Below, one piece after another: positions 33,172-39,341 of a DNA stretch of 41,634 nt (positions are counted from its first letter, which is position 1; each line of letters opens with the position of its first letter). The notes under the pieces are model-generated. The model was not told the DNA's origin, did not search any database, and saw nothing but the letters and a program-made list of their open reading frames with translations. The stretch spans positions 1 through 41,634 of the forward strand of contig CAYLOA010000007.1 in the NCBI GenBank assembly GCA_964385185.1. The letters run 5' to 3'. The position numbers and the translations under genes are program-made. The stretch is from an uncultured Methanosarcinales archaeon (GTDB lineage: Archaea; Nanobdellota; Nanobdellia; Woesearchaeales; CALCXY01).

Positions 33172-34923
33172 ATGAACACCAAAGAATTAAAAAACCTATA
33201 CCTAGAATTCTTCAAATCCAAAGACCATGCCATAGTCCCATCAGCATCCCTCCTCCCAGAAAACGATCCAACAGTCCTATTCACAACTGCAGGCATGCAT
33301 CCCCTAGTTCCCTACTTAATGGGTCAACCACATCCAGAAGGAACAAGAATCGCAGATGTCCAAAAATGCATAAGAACAGTAGACATTGACGCAGTCGGAG
33401 ACCCACACCATCTAACATTCTTCGAAATGCTCGGAAACTGGTCACTAGGAGACTACTTCAAGGAAGACTCCATCAAATGGTCATATGAATTTCTAACAAA
33501 AAAAGACTTCCTAAACCTCCCAATAGAAAACCTTTCCTTCACGTGCTTCAAGGGCGATGAAAACGCTCCAAAAGACACCGAAGCAGAAGCTGTATGGCTC
33601 GAATTAGGTATCCCAAAAGAAAGAATCTACTTCCTCCCAGCTGAAGATAACTGGTGGGGTCCTGCAGGAGAAACTGGCCCTTGCGGTCCATGTTCAGAGA
33701 TATTCTACGACACAGGCAGACCACCATGCTCCAAAAACTGTGATCCATCCTGCTCATGCGGAAAGTTCTTTGAAATATGGAACAATGTTTTTATGGAATA
33801 CAACAAAAACAAAGATGGCTCATTCAAAAAACTAGACCAAAAAAACGTCGACACAGGTATGGGTGTAGAAAGAACAGTCGCAGTCCTAAACGGCTTAGAC
33901 TCTGTCTACAAAACAGACATCTTCACACCGCTACTAGAAAAAATCACCACACTCACAAAAACTCCGAATGATGAATCACCAAGAATCATAGCAGACCACG
34001 CTAGATTCGCAACATTCGTATTAGGAGATGATAGAAAAGTAATACCATCAAATGTTGACCAAGGCTACATCCTAAGACGATTAATCCGAAGAGCTGTCCG
34101 ACATGCCAAAAAACTCGGTCTACCCTCACCTTTCCTCGGACAGCTAGCAACAATAATCATCGACCAATACAAAGACGAATACAGTGAACTCCAAAGAAAC
34201 AAAGAGTTCATACTAGACGAACTAAAAAAAGAAGAAACAAGATTCTCCGAAACACTAGAAAAAGGACTAAGAGAGTTTGAAAAACTTGCAGGAGATAAAA
34301 AAATAGAAGCAAAAGAAGCTTTCCTATTATTTCAATCATACGGCTTTCCTATAGAAATGACTGTTGAATTGGCAAAAGAAAAAAACATCTTAGTAGATGA
34401 AAAAGGATTCCAGCAAGAATTCAAAGCACACCAAGCTCTCAGCAGAACAGGAGCTGAAAAACGGTTCAAAGGAGGCTTAGGAGATACCTCAGACGCTTCC
34501 ATTAAACTCCACACAGCAACTCACTTACTAAACGAAGCATTACGAATTGTCTTAAAAGATAACTCAATCAAACAAAAAGGATCAAATATAACTTCAGAAA
34601 GATTAAGATTTGACTTTAACTTCCCAAGAAGATTAACAGTAGAAGAGAAACAAGCTGTAGAAGATACTGTAAACAAACTCATCCAAGAAGCTATCCCAGT
34701 CGAACGCCTAGAAATGTCATTCGAAGAAGCTAAGAAACTAGGAGCTCAAATGGAGTTCGACACCTACCCAGATAAAGTCTCAGTCTACAAAATAGGAGAC
34801 TTCTCGCTAGAACTCTGCGGTGGACCACACGTAACCAACACAAAAGACATAGGCCATTTCAAGATAAAGAAAGAAGAATCCTCTGCAGCAGGAATAAGAA
34901 GAATAAAGGCGATAGTAGACTAA
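33172..34923 (+). CDS. alaS: Alanine--tRNA ligase, short form lacking the C-Ala domain
   Basis: LFTTAGM, HLTFFEMLGNWS, DTGMGVER, editing HTATH...CGGPH; ends at GIRRIKAIVD. Confidence 0.97.
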   Translation: MNTKELKNLYLEFFKSKDHAIVPSASLLPENDPTVLFTTAGMHPLVPYLMGQPHPEGTRIADVQKCIRTVDIDAVGDPHHLTFFEMLGNWSLGDYFKEDSIKWSYEFLTKKDFLNLPIENLSFTCFKGDENAPKDTEAEAVWLELGIPKERIYFLPAEDNWWGPAGETGPCGPCSEIFYDTGRPPCSKNCDPSCSCGKFFEIWNNVFMEYNKNKDGSFKKLDQKNVDTGMGVERTVAVLNGLDSVYKTDIFTPLLEKITTLTKTPNDESPRIIADHARFATFVLGDDRKVIPSNVDQGYILRRLIRRAVRHAKKLGLPSPFLGQLATIIIDQYKDEYSELQRNKEFILDELKKEETRFSETLEKGLREFEKLAGDKKIEAKEAFLLFQSYGFPIEMTVELAKEKNILVDEKGFQQEFKAHQALSRTGAEKRFKGGLGDTSDASIKLHTATHLLNEALRIVLKDNSIKQKGSNITSERLRFDFNFPRRLTVEEKQAVEDTVNKLIQEAIPVERLEMSFEEAKKLGAQMEFDTYPDKVSVYKIGDFSLELCGGPHVTNTKDIGHFKIKKEESSAAGIRRIKAIVD

Positions 34924-35572: not shown

Positions 35573-35606
35573 TTTTATAAATACATTTTCTAAAATAGAG
35601 GTTTAA

Positions 35607-35662
35607 GGGGTGGTAAACGCAAGTATGTTGTTCTAGACATACTGATATGCTGTTTCTATCCT
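35607..35662 (+). promoter_or_regulatory. Structured 5' leader of the K+ channel operon
   Basis: GGGTGG/CTATCC, AAAC/GTTT, GCA/TGC and AGTATGT/ACATACT nested stems; TATA TTTTATAA at 35573-35580. Confidence 0.45.
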
Positions 35663-35670
35663 CTAAATGA

Positions 35671-36696
35671 ATGAAAGAACGGAAAGAACTAATCCGACAT
35701 TTGCATAGGAAGAAGTCCTTCTTCAGAGGTTTACCTAGTTTCAAATCTATTTTCACAGGGAAAAACATAATCATCTTAGCATTTCTCATCTTATTCATCT
35801 CTTCAGTAACTTTATACGCAAGATTTGAATTCGCTCCAGCAATCCAACAAACTAACAACATATACTTCGAAGCGTTTTACTGGATGGTCACAACAGCTAC
35901 CACAGTAGGATACGGTGACATCACACCACAAACTACCGAAGGTAAGATACTAGCCCTAGTAGTAATGGTCTTAGGAGTATCCATGCTAGGATATATCCTC
36001 TCACAGCTAACAAAGACATTAGTTTCAGCAAACATTGGAAGATTCTTCGGACTTTCAACCATCAAAGATTCCATCGACTATATCATCTGTGGCTGGAACG
36101 ATATTGCAAAAGCAGCCTTTGAAGAAGTAAACGACCTCAAAAGCAACATAATTATCATATCAGAAAATAGACCAGACGTCCAATTCTCCAAGAATGTCCA
36201 GTATATGGATGGAGACCCTCATGACAGAACCATATTAGAAAATGCAAACGCAGCAAAAGCAAAAAATATCCTCTTATGCATGAACAACGATTCAAAAATA
36301 CTTTTAGCTATCCACGTCATACGAGAATTAAATCCCTGGACAAATATCATTGCAAAAATGAATGATCCAAGCTATATCCCGATGGCAGAATCCGCTGGAG
36401 CAGACCAAACCATCGCTCCAGCAGCCTTAGCAGGAAGACTCCTTTCCATAGTTACCAATCAACCCTATGTAGTAAAATGGTTCTTGAAATCAACATCACT
36501 TTCCATGCATGAAAAGTTCGTAGAATACCCTGTCCATGACAAATCCCTATTCGTAGATAAAACAGTAGCAGATATCAGAAGAGATTCAAAACTAAAAATT
36601 ATAGGAGTAGAATCAGGTGACGGTTTTGAAAAAATACCTTCAGATACATACTCCATAAAATCAGGAGATAAATTGATTATGATGGTGAGCAGCTAA
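35671..36696 (+). CDS. MthK-like 2TM K+ channel with RCK (TrkA_N/TrkA_C) domain
   Basis: Selectivity filter TTVGYGD; IICGWN RCK start; GADQTIAP. Confidence 0.93.
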   Translation: MKERKELIRHLHRKKSFFRGLPSFKSIFTGKNIIILAFLILFISSVTLYARFEFAPAIQQTNNIYFEAFYWMVTTATTVGYGDITPQTTEGKILALVVMVLGVSMLGYILSQLTKTLVSANIGRFFGLSTIKDSIDYIICGWNDIAKAAFEEVNDLKSNIIIISENRPDVQFSKNVQYMDGDPHDRTILENANAAKAKNILLCMNNDSKILLAIHVIRELNPWTNIIAKMNDPSYIPMAESAGADQTIAPAALAGRLLSIVTNQPYVVKWFLKSTSLSMHEKFVEYPVHDKSLFVDKTVADIRRDSKLKIIGVESGDGFEKIPSDTYSIKSGDKLIMMVSS

Positions 36697-38681
36697 TGGA
36701 TGTAAATAATGTAAACATAGTAACGATCTCTTTCATAGCAGCAGCAATAAAGCTTCTCATCGCAGGCTACATCTACTCAAAGAATAGAAAAGCACATATT
36801 AATATCTTATTCGCATTAATCTTCCTCTTCCAAGGAATTTGGGATTTAGGAAAAGGATTCATGTGGATAACACAAACGAAAGACTTAGCATTCATGTTCG
36901 GAAAAATATCCTACGCTGGCTACATAATATCCATATTCATGTTTGCGCATTTCAGTTGGAAATACCTCAATAGAAAAAACATCTTTTCAAAGTCAAAACT
37001 CTCTACATTTATCTATTACACCCCTATGATCGTTCTCTTAGTTGCTCTATTCGCTTCAGACCTACTTCTAGCAGATCTTCTAGCTCCTGGTGCTATGCAT
37101 ATAGGATTTAACCTAGAACTATGGATGTACTCTTACGGAATATTCTATAATTATTTTTTTGTAGTCTTCCAAATACTCCCTTTCCTCTACGCATTTATTA
37201 TCTTCATAGCAAAATACGTAAAAACAAAAGACACAGACTTAAAAAAACGTCTGAGATACATCATAGCAGGAGTATCATTCCCCATTATCATTGGAATTCC
37301 AACAGGAGTAATCCTCCCACAACTAGGAATACGACTCCCTCCACATAACAACATCCTAACATTAATAATGTCAGTATTTATCGGAATTGGAATATTAAAG
37401 TACAAATTCCTCTCCATCACATCATCACTAGAAAAACCTTCAAAAAATATTTCATTCTCCACTGATATTAAAAATTCAAAATTTAACCACGGATCTTCAT
37501 ATTTAATAGAAAATCCAGATTCAAAGGATACAGCTTATCATTTCTTCCTATATAACCTATACCAAGGAAATCATGGTTTCATCTTAACAGCAACAAATCC
37601 AGAAGAAATCAGAAAGAAATACGGCCTCACTTCAACACCCATTGCATGGCTCACCGATACAGAGACAGATGAAACTTCATTTGGTCACCATGATATCGAA
37701 CAAATTCATGGCACGATTGAACAGTTTATGCAAGAAAATCCAAATTCATTTGTCATGCTTGATTCATTACCTACACTAATCAAACACAACAATTTCAGAA
37801 AAATTCAATACCTCATTAAGAGACTAAACATCTTAATTAAAAAACACTCAGGAGTCTTAATTGCTCCCTACGGTGACTTAAAGATTTCAAAGAAGGAACG
37901 TCTAGTCCTCGGTACAGAATTTACCTACAAGACTGCTAAAGGCCGTCTAGCTTCCTTAACTGGATCCATGATTGACCTCTACAAACAATCAGCAGGGAAA
38001 GAAAAATTCATCATCCTAGGATACAATACAGTCACAAAATCATTATTAGAGGAATTCATAGCTAGGAAAACACCTTGCACTTTGGTTTCACCAAAGGAAA
38101 TTCAAATTCCCTATCCAAAGTTTGTCAAAATAATTAAGAAAGACCCCTTGATCAAAGAGGTAATGACTTCATTAAACATAGACGCCAGCAATGTAAATAT
38201 CTTAATAACCTATGCATCTGACGCACACTCAATTCTAGCAGTAAACCTCATTAGACACCTCACACAAAAGGCAAAAGTCCTCGTTGAAGTAAACAGAGAA
38301 AAGTATGTAGACATTGCAAGAAAGGCAGGAGCAAATGAAGTCGTAGCTTCTTCAGCTATTGGAGGAAAACTCTTAGCCATGTCACTCTCACATCCCTCTG
38401 TAGTGGAATGGTTCATGGATTCCTTAACACCAACCAACAAAAACCTAGAGGTGCAAGAATTATCAATTTCATCAAAATCACCTTTAATAGGAAAATCCAT
38501 CTTACAAGCAGATAAAATATTCCATAACTCCATGAATATCCTATCAGTCTCTAAACAAGGTAAATACGACCTCACCCATACAGACGATTACAAAATTCAA
38601 GTAGGAGATACCATTATCGTAATAGTTCACAAAATAAGACTAAACAAAGACAAGAAGTTGATGAAGTTCTTTAGGGTGTGA
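36696..38681 (+). CDS. 7TM sensor (HisKA_7TM-like) + DUF835-like + RCK fusion protein
   Basis: About 7 hydrophobic helices ending ILKYKFL; NPEEIRKKYGL..TPIAWLT and VMLDSLPTLIKHNNF; IILGYN...AGANEVV...GDTIIV; TAATG coupling to the channel gene. Confidence 0.75.
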   Translation: MDVNNVNIVTISFIAAAIKLLIAGYIYSKNRKAHINILFALIFLFQGIWDLGKGFMWITQTKDLAFMFGKISYAGYIISIFMFAHFSWKYLNRKNIFSKSKLSTFIYYTPMIVLLVALFASDLLLADLLAPGAMHIGFNLELWMYSYGIFYNYFFVVFQILPFLYAFIIFIAKYVKTKDTDLKKRLRYIIAGVSFPIIIGIPTGVILPQLGIRLPPHNNILTLIMSVFIGIGILKYKFLSITSSLEKPSKNISFSTDIKNSKFNHGSSYLIENPDSKDTAYHFFLYNLYQGNHGFILTATNPEEIRKKYGLTSTPIAWLTDTETDETSFGHHDIEQIHGTIEQFMQENPNSFVMLDSLPTLIKHNNFRKIQYLIKRLNILIKKHSGVLIAPYGDLKISKKERLVLGTEFTYKTAKGRLASLTGSMIDLYKQSAGKEKFIILGYNTVTKSLLEEFIARKTPCTLVSPKEIQIPYPKFVKIIKKDPLIKEVMTSLNIDASNVNILITYASDAHSILAVNLIRHLTQKAKVLVEVNREKYVDIARKAGANEVVASSAIGGKLLAMSLSHPSVVEWFMDSLTPTNKNLEVQELSISSKSPLIGKSILQADKIFHNSMNILSVSKQGKYDLTHTDDYKIQVGDTIIVIVHKIRLNKDKKLMKFFRV

Positions 38682-38689
38682 CTCATAAC

Positions 38690-39097
38690 CTAGCCTATCC
38701 TCTCACCTAATTCTTCAGCATCATAAACTTCAAGTTCATCTACAGCCTTTAATCGTTTCTCTTTCGACCATAACGGACAATTGAATTGTAATGCTAATGC
38801 AACATAAGCAGTATCTTTTACATGCTCACCAAGCAATTCATTCGCTTTCTTTAGCATATCTTTAAAATCTTCTTCAGGAACTATCTTAACATATTTCTTA
38901 TAGAGCGCTAGGAGAGTATCAAATTCTACTTTACTTAATTTAGATTTTTCTAAGAGCTCAACTCTATGATTTTCAATTTCAGTAAAAAGTCTTTCAGGTG
39001 CAACGGGTTTTATCTTTGGCGAAAATAATAATTCAGCAGTCTTTCCTTTTGCCAATAGTCCAGCACAAAGAACATTGGCATCAACTACAATAAACAT
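38690..39097 (-). CDS. PIN-domain (VapC-like) toxin
   Basis: IVVDANVL, EIE, DTAYVALAL, PLWS motifs. Confidence 0.85.
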   Translation of the reverse strand: MFIVVDANVLCAGLLAKGKTAELLFSPKIKPVAPERLFTEIENHRVELLEKSKLSKVEFDTLLALYKKYVKIVPEEDFKDMLKKANELLGEHVKDTAYVALALQFNCPLWSKEKRLKAVDELEVYDAEELGERIG

Positions 39098-39098
39098 C

Positions 39099-39341
39099 TT
39101 ATGCTATGTCATACTTCCCCTTATATTTTTGATGCATTGATCTGGTAATTTTATCTGCAATCTTATCACTATCAGCTTTATCCAATTTGCTTTTGGCAAC
39201 AATCTTCTTAAAAATCGTAAGATCTACTAACCTATCCTTTATAGCTTCTCTAGCTACCTCCGACCAATTAATGAATTTCGATGCATCCATATCTTTTTTC
39301 ATTTCCTCAGGAACTGATAGTGTTATTGTTGGCATATTCAT
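39099..39341 (-). CDS. Ribbon-helix-helix antitoxin
   Basis: MPTITLSVPEEMKKDM...INWSEVAREAI; directly upstream of the PIN gene. Confidence 0.85.
   Translation of the reverse strand: MNMPTITLSVPEEMKKDMDASKFINWSEVAREAIKDRLVDLTIFKKIVAKSKLDKADSDKIADKITRSMHQKYKGKYDIA

Follow-up and report, generated by a model that had tools for sequence, protein, structure and literature searches.

In a 41,634-nucleotide (nt) stretch of archaeal DNA, hereafter the window, two adjoining genes on the plus strand, which carries all features described here unless stated otherwise, encode an MthK-like K+ channel (35671..36696; 341 amino acids (aa), delimited by its open reading frame (ORF), Pfam and phmmer against PDB) and a protein that we call the partner (36696..38681; 661 aa, from its ORF, Pfam and an AlphaFold2 model). 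The channel combines a pore of two transmembrane (TM) helices (2TM) with one RCK domain, and the partner joins a seven-helix (7TM) sensor to a DUF835 (iKaiC) domain and a second RCK domain. On balance we lean, if only slightly, towards the view that the 7TM sensor protein supplies the second set of RCK domains to the gating ring of the channel, in a 4:4 ring. Both genes would then encode one membrane complex, in which four channel subunits would form the K+ pore with one RCK domain beneath each and four partner subunits would sit beside the pore in the membrane. The C-terminal RCK domain of the partner would pair with a channel RCK domain through the helix-crossover ('flexible') interface to give an eight-RCK ring in the style of MthK and GsuK, and a stimulus at the seven-helix bundle (N-terminus outside, with a conserved outer loop) would be relayed by the DUF835 domain, KaiC-like and inactive, to the partner RCK domain, from there to the ring and finally to the pore gate. 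From the evidence below we infer that the two proteins assemble physically and in a 4:4 ratio, and likewise which way the signal runs and what kind of stimulus sets it off. The pair had been picked out by an initial annotation made from the letters of the window, which described a TVGYG channel with an RCK domain overlapping (TAATG) a 7TM-DUF835-RCK gene that has neither pore nor kinase; ORF and Pfam analyses bore out every detail, and all of the Pfam domains scored above their cut-offs.

First, the two genes are kept together. A word-indexed search returned 25 partner homologues, all in records labelled Woesearchaeota, Nanoarchaeota or archaea without a finer label, and TrkA_N was detected in 23 of them, the remaining two being shorter records of which one is labelled partial. 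With E values far below chance and an architecture that recurs in these 23 homologues, the domain make-up is no accident. A gene-neighbourhood survey, which the initial annotation had proposed as a check, found the pair intact wherever the locus is informative: a channel gene lies directly upstream of the partner in 20/20 loci from species-representative Woesearchaeota and Nanoarchaeota genomes (at one of these, L012, only the last 83 channel residues are present, at a contig end) and in all 12 of the 16 metagenome loci that include the upstream region, several of the metagenome loci being duplicates of genome loci and two (L028 and L030) being the window itself. Among 301 genomes sampled from the order, ten encode a full-length partner (families f1, f33, f109 and f132) and all ten have the channel adjoining it, counts that rest in part on two unpublished genomes (G132 and G207). 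At E below 1e-60, these ten genomes have a channel orthologue, as does one more, G180, to which we return below.

The spacing of the two genes is similarly tight. When the ATG nearest the start of homology is taken as that of the partner, the two genes overlap in eight of 20 loci, by up to 17 nt, and in the other 12 leave 1-36 nt between the channel stop codon and this ATG. In the window, the stop and start codons overlap in a TAATG (36694..36698) with one base common to both genes, and a GGTGA (36684..36688) within the end of the channel gene, 7 nt 5' of the partner ATG, may act as a Shine-Dalgarno-like element; both were read from the sequence. None of the 21 loci has a broken reading frame in either gene, even where partner identity falls to 37%, and no other real gene family is common to more than 10 of them. 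The second-largest neighbour cluster (19 loci) was set aside as apparent antisense shadow ORFs inside both genes, as judged from four examples. Among the homologue matches there was no protein in which channel and partner are fused: the longest is 729 aa in the search that gave the 25 homologues, and the 12 best partner matches in a wider search (see below) are at most 718 aa. A split form of the partner was likewise discarded: the shorter matches (317-553 aa) have an end within the query and give the impression of truncated records. The stretch 35600-38700 was found in marine, seawater and hydrothermal-vent DNA runs, and no RNA dataset containing it was listed. Six of the pair-bearing loci (L003, L007, L008, L013, L015 and L018) carry the label 'uncultured Methanosarcinales archaeon', the pair otherwise occurring in records of Woesearchaeota, Nanoarchaeota or an unnamed archaeon; the Methanosarcinales label on these six assemblies is probably a taxonomic mislabel.

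Second, the channel has the parts of an MthK-like channel. Its pore module matches Ion_trans_2 (aa 39-118, 35785..36024; E 8.8e-16) and its translation contains a TVGYG selectivity filter (aa 78-82, 35902..35916), followed by a linker from TM2 to the RCK domain (codons 106-136, 35986..36078, placed by codon list, orthologue comparison and MthK alignment) and by the RCK domain itself (36079..36690, from Pfam and the MthK alignment), made up of TrkA_N (aa 137-250; E 3.8e-19), crossover helices and TrkA_C (aa 284-340; E 2.8e-7). All three Pfam matches exceed the curated cut-offs. By phmmer, MthK is the best sequence match of the channel in PDB (E 4.2e-30, over aa 42-336), and the alignment covers MthK residues 26-319, including the MthK pore. 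The filter reads TVGYGD in 17 of 20 channel orthologues, TTGYGD in two (L014 and L016) and is degenerate in one. The last of these, at L017:3632-4696, has T-GYEE instead of TVGYGD, with its frame intact and its partner present, and the selectivity of the K+ pore may have changed in some lineages of partnered channels.

The channel RCK domain lacks the recognized means of responding to small ligands. When mapped by hand from the alignment, the MthK Ca2+ ligands D184, E210 and E212 correspond to C203, K229 and N231 of the channel, such that the Ca2+ site is not conserved, and across the 20 orthologues K229 is invariant and N231 nearly so. At the position of the nucleotide-binding motif the channel reads G-W-N-D-I-A, with no GxGxxG. 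The same holds for the partner RCK domain, in which the Ca2+ ligand positions are occupied by T505, E531 and N533 and the nucleotide motif by G-Y-N-T-V-T, again with no GxGxxG. That both RCK domains are without known small-ligand sites (Ca2+ triad, GxGxxG) therefore fits an input derived from a sensor, and the partner sensor is the obvious input to such a ring.

The architecture of the partner is that of a sensor that ends in an RCK domain. HisKA_7TM (PF16927; aa 13-241, 36732..37418; E 2.6e-15, 57.3 bits versus a cut-off of 28.6) is followed by DUF835 (PF05763; aa 278-409, 37527..37922; E 3.1e-15, 56.6 bits versus 33.1) and by an RCK domain (38007..38633, from Pfam, fold search and the predicted dimer) comprising TrkA_N (aa 438-550; E 5.9e-12, 46.4 bits), crossover helices (550-579) and TrkA_C (aa 587-646; E 2e-7, 31.2 bits), both Pfam matches above cut-off. 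No ion-channel, HisKA or HATPase match was obtained from Pfam, the latter two having been looked for at E values up to 0.1. In an AlphaFold2 model built on a 22-sequence alignment (mean predicted local distance difference test (pLDDT) score of 79.1), residues 5-236 hold seven long helices, with a beta hairpin separating helix 4 from helix 5; the model also shows a RecA-like alpha/beta domain and the RCK domain. Confidence is low in the linker 414-434 and in the RCK crossover helices 553-581, which for the latter is in line with a segment that requires a dimer mate. Many residues are invariant across 22 partner sequences, and in public records the partner goes by no more specific name than DUF835 domain-containing protein or Trk NAD-binding subunit.

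Reading the translation against the model placed Lys/Arg-rich loops after helices 1, 3, 5 and 7, and 14 of 22 partner homologues have an extra N-terminal hydrophobic segment. Because both features fit it, we infer a topology with the N-terminus outside and the C-terminus inside, which would place DUF835 and the RCK domain in the cytoplasm. The RCK-bearing family has invariant, clade-specific motifs in its 7TM domain, QxxWDxGK (TM2), YNYFF..FQ (TM5) and PPHNN (TM6-TM7 loop), which were not seen in 21 RCK-less 7TM-DUF835 relatives. Superposition of the modelled bundle on those of G-protein-coupled receptors (GPCRs) gave Z scores of 14-16 and root-mean-square deviations (rmsd) of 3.5-4.1 over 203-226 residues. 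Arrangement alone, however, often lifts the best Z of a helical model to about 14, and the GPCR likeness of the model is thus borderline and serves as a lead only.

The initial annotation had also taken DUF835 for an inactive, KaiC-related ATPase-like domain, and this assignment held up. Modelled alone (pLDDT 89.7), the domain has a RecA fold like that of KaiC and FlaH, with matches to FlaH (PDB 4yds; Z 15.5, rmsd 2.9, 159 residues) and KaiC (Z 13.0-13.2). It was the fold search that settled its identity, as a DUF835 profile gave only weak matches to PDB sequences, the best relevant one being FlaH (E 0.0066). None of 27 aligned sequences has a Walker A GK[ST] after the first strand. They do keep a hydrophobic, Walker-B-like strand with Asp at its end, and DUF835 appears from its residues to be an inactivated ATPase that has lost ATP binding. 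The missing GK[ST] together with the KaiC-like fold fits the label iKaiC, under which the available text of PMC5847659 lists DUF835 as an output domain of archaeal response regulators.

Third, the RCK domain of the partner is akin to that of the channel. Its top PDB sequence match is GsuK (E about 5e-11 to 1e-10) and its top Foldseek matches are the MthK RCK domain and GsuK (E about 2e-11); scores against RCK1 and RCK2 of GsuK are near-equal (20.0 and 23.4 bits), and no ring layer was deduced from them. Within the window, the channel and partner RCK domains share 28% identity over 207 aa (E 8e-26), and profiles of the two families match at E 2.5e-46 over 228 columns. Judged from the wide search and the tree described next, the closest relative of the partner RCK domain is the channel RCK domain. 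A wide search of 1.84 billion representatives yielded 2152 matches, of which the 12 with E <=2.9e-69 constitute the partner family (five full-length, seven truncated), while the more distant ones are mostly 7TM-DUF835 proteins with no RCK domain: 31 of 32 distant proteins scanned from this search lacked TrkA_N, and in many of them DUF835 was present in tandem. These 7TM-DUF835 proteins (P0034-P0142) make up a large archaeal family, in which one member (P0114) has four DUF835 domains and some match DUF7504 or DUF7090.

In a tree of RCK domains (52 rows, root unknown), the partner RCK domains form one clade (100/100) and the RCK domains of partnered channels form another (96/97), with matching major groupings in the two clades and the G180 channel outside the partnered-channel clade. 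Ten RCK-region matches included in the tree fell with cognate channels (five) or with partner RCK domains (one), were channels with two RCK domains (three), or branched from the channel group at its base, where the tree is unresolved (one). The simplest reading of these relationships is that a 7TM-DUF835 sensor acquired a channel-type RCK domain in a single event, after which the two genes were always passed on as a pair.

Fourth, the two RCK domains are predicted to pair. A 1:1 complex of the channel RCK domain (residues 124-341) and the partner RCK domain (residues 428-661), each predicted with its own alignment, scored 0.78, compared to 0.00 for the best of three controls; among solved complexes 116 of 157 attain this mark, and among mismatched pairs two of 215. 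The runs share at least 94% of contacts, with a partner pLDDT of at least 84. The predicted interface is the canonical 'flexible' RCK dimer, formed by the crossover helices (248-277 of the channel and 550-579 of the partner), N-lobe helix 1 of each domain and the C-lobes, and according to the models the channel and partner RCK domains are compatible with this canonical dimer.

Fifth, the genome holds few other candidates for either role. It spans 1.30 megabases (Mb) in 85 contigs with an estimated completeness of 100, and its TrkA_N complement consists of a 575-aa Kef-like antiporter (contig C1), the channel, the partner and two weak matches only. There is no free-standing RCK gene in the genome, and on this inventory there is therefore no other RCK donor. 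The genome has one DUF835 and one Ion_trans_2 pore, and TrkH, Kup and KdpA were not found in it. No K+ pore other than the channel was found in the genome, and besides the Kef-like antiporter no further K+ pathway was detected.

A second source of RCK domains could in principle lie within the channel gene itself. In MthK, the four extra RCK domains are made from an internal start, Met107, of the same gene, as the available part of PMC9440719 reports. The window channel has no ATG, GTG or TTG in codons 106-141, which cover the region of the MthK soluble-RCK start. Of the 31 linker codons (106-136), none is a potential start codon of these three kinds in 7 of 20 orthologues, that is, in the window channel and six others, and in one further orthologue the linker contains GTG or TTG only.

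Several points weigh against a ring completed by the partner. The remaining 12 of the 20 orthologous channels carry a linker ATG (in GSMFGV), two codons off the position of MthK Met107, and these channels might, from their codons, make a soluble RCK domain of their own. The score of the predicted dimer may stem from likeness to solved RCK dimers (MthK, GsuK and KtrA), and the prediction cannot separate heterodimers from homodimers. The untethered RCK domains of MthK form the membrane-distal layer of the ring according to the available part of PMC9440719, and to take that position the partner RCK domain must reach it by way of DUF835 and two linkers of about 21 and about 27 residues, which by rough length reasoning seems possible. 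Moreover, a channel of this type can exist alone: genome G180, with an estimated completeness of 95%, encodes a channel (38% identity) between unrelated genes but no partner. This lone channel (G180:C32, equivalent to L026:4302-5423 on the minus strand) is 373 aa long, with a Met at the end of TM2 and an RCK domain with a WVMEATT motif otherwise resembling the partner family. It may resemble an ancestral stand-alone state. Weighing these points, the earlier proposal that the fusion supplies the extra RCK domains gains from the conserved pair, the predicted RCK dimer, the missing MthK-type start in the window channel and the lack of another RCK donor, and it is held back by a dimer that is a model result, in which hetero- and homodimers are not separated, and by the 12 orthologues with a linker ATG. 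Of the three outcomes that the initial annotation named as refuting it (unconfirmed domains, an unconserved pair and RCK domains that fail to hetero-assemble), none turned up, the last being judged from the complex prediction.

We considered whether the operon might instead encode two separate machines, with a self-contained partner whose RCK domains pair with themselves, as in KefC, and which shares with the channel the operon and perhaps a ligand. RCK/KTN domains do regulate their own membrane domain in Kef-type proteins, the N-lobe of the partner RCK domain superposes on KefC (Z 17.4, rmsd 1.9, 119 residues), the complex prediction leaves room for homodimers, as just noted, and in the tree the partner RCK domains sit on a long branch (1.05) away from the channel RCK domains. 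Such an arrangement, however, does not account for a gene order that is the same in every informative locus, stop/start overlaps included, and it offers no source of a second RCK domain for the 7 of 20 channels that have no start codon in the linker. Nor does a 7TM-DUF835 module seem to require an RCK domain for a function of its own, since the 21 RCK-less relatives were scanned and have no TrkA_N, so that the module works without one elsewhere; and HisKA_7TM is described in the available text of PMC5847659 as a sensor domain and not as a transporter. We therefore regard two independent machines as unlikely.

Alternatively, the partner may act as a modulator: the channel would complete the ring through its own internally started soluble RCK domain, and the partner RCK domain would exchange into some positions or sequester channel RCK domains in the manner of KtrC. 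The linker ATG near the Met107 position in 12/20 orthologues speaks for this possibility, as does the precedent of KtrC, which assembles with KtrA and confers regulation on the resulting heteromers (PMC11067040, in the part available). Yet a linker ATG, GTG or TTG is missing from the window channel and six orthologues, so this cannot be the general mode and is possible only in 12-13 orthologues; we think it a rather poor prospect as an account of the pair. Finally, although neighbouring genes need not be partners, the idea that the adjacency is meaningless, with the genes side by side by chance or the partner a duplicate of the channel gene in decay, deserves almost no credence in view of the intact frames in all 21 loci, the adjacency in every informative locus and the many invariant residues of the partner.

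On the basis that the partner contributes the second set of RCK domains, a bolder version can be formulated, which we offer tentatively and would not expect to hold in full: the pair would constitute a prokaryotic receptor-operated channel, in which four GPCR-like seven-helix sensors with inactive KaiC-like transducers form the second RCK layer of a 4:4 complex with about 36 TM helices, and a signal from outside or from the membrane gates the pore directly, with no second messenger. Because the channel is the only K+ pore found in this 1.3-Mb DPANN genome, such a signal, for instance host contact or an environmental cue, could control the K+ conductance of the whole cell. From MthK to human BK channels, RCK gating rings are the textbook route for opening a K+ channel by a ligand, and to our knowledge every described RCK ring senses a soluble cytoplasmic ligand. 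If true, the proposed complex would thus provide a direct, messenger-free link from receptor to channel, as well as the first concrete output for HisKA_7TM and DUF835/iKaiC, two poorly understood archaeal signalling modules, and a natural system for asking how asymmetric rings pass force to a pore. The complex may likewise reveal the way in which DPANN archaea that depend on a host and have minimal genomes control their only K+ conductance.

The other genes around the pair in the window encode an alanyl-tRNA synthetase (AlaRS), a TP_methylase protein, a PIN_2 protein, a TrmB regulator and a pentapeptide-repeat protein, none of which is conserved with the pair. The AlaRS (33172-34923, plus strand) has only 583 aa, comprising a catalytic core and a tRNA_SAD editing-type domain, and typical AlaRS proteins are considerably longer. 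The gene for the 215-aa methyltransferase of the TP_methylase family begins one base past the AlaRS stop codon. On the minus strand (38690-39341), the gene for the PIN_2 protein (135 aa) comes right after an 80-aa ORF with no Pfam match, the two being 1 nt apart, and together they look like a toxin-antitoxin pair.

Among known systems, GsuK of Geobacter (PDB 4gx0) and the eukaryotic BK/Slo channels have rings of two RCK paralogues, RCK1 and RCK2, with four copies of each. They resemble the proposed ring in combining two different RCK paralogues and differ from it in that both RCK domains reside on the pore-forming chain, whereas here the second would come in trans from a sensor. MthK (PDB 1lnq, 6oly) is like the channel in its 2TM TVGYG pore followed by one RCK domain (TrkA_N plus TrkA_C), and its RCK domain is also the best fold match of the partner RCK domain. 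Its ring consists of four tethered and four untethered RCK domains (PMC9440719, in the part available). By contrast with the pair, MthK obtains its extra RCK domains from Met107 of its own gene, while the candidate for the extra RCK domain here is the C-terminus of a separate 7TM-DUF835 protein; MthK also differs from the channel in its Ca2+ triad, which is replaced here by C, K and N.

The initial annotation knew of no heteromeric ring of the kind it proposed. This calls for a qualification, as the available parts of the respective papers document heteromeric RCK rings of KtrA and KtrC (PMC11067040) and a two-subunit RCK ring of TM1088A and TM1088B (PMC4380455); we found none described that mixes RCK domains tethered to a channel with RCK domains tethered to a membrane sensor, and our literature search found no description of an RCK domain on a 7TM sensor paired with an RCK-bearing channel. 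Heteromeric rings of soluble RCK proteins are thus known. KtrA/KtrC and TM1088A/B are like the pair in that RCK subunits are encoded apart from the pore. Unlike the partner, a 7TM protein without GxGxxG, they are soluble, bind nucleotides and lie beneath pores of the KtrB/TrkH type, and unlike the Ktr and Trk systems, the partner adjoins a tetrameric 2TM channel that already bears an RCK domain. The archaeal 7TM-DUF835 proteins (HisKA_7TM plus one to four DUF835 domains) share the N-terminal architecture of the partner but not its RCK domain, which was lacking in the 31 that were scanned, many having a second DUF835 instead. Similarly, HisKA_7TM sensor histidine kinases carry a HisKA/HATPase kinase core at the place where the partner has DUF835 and an RCK domain.

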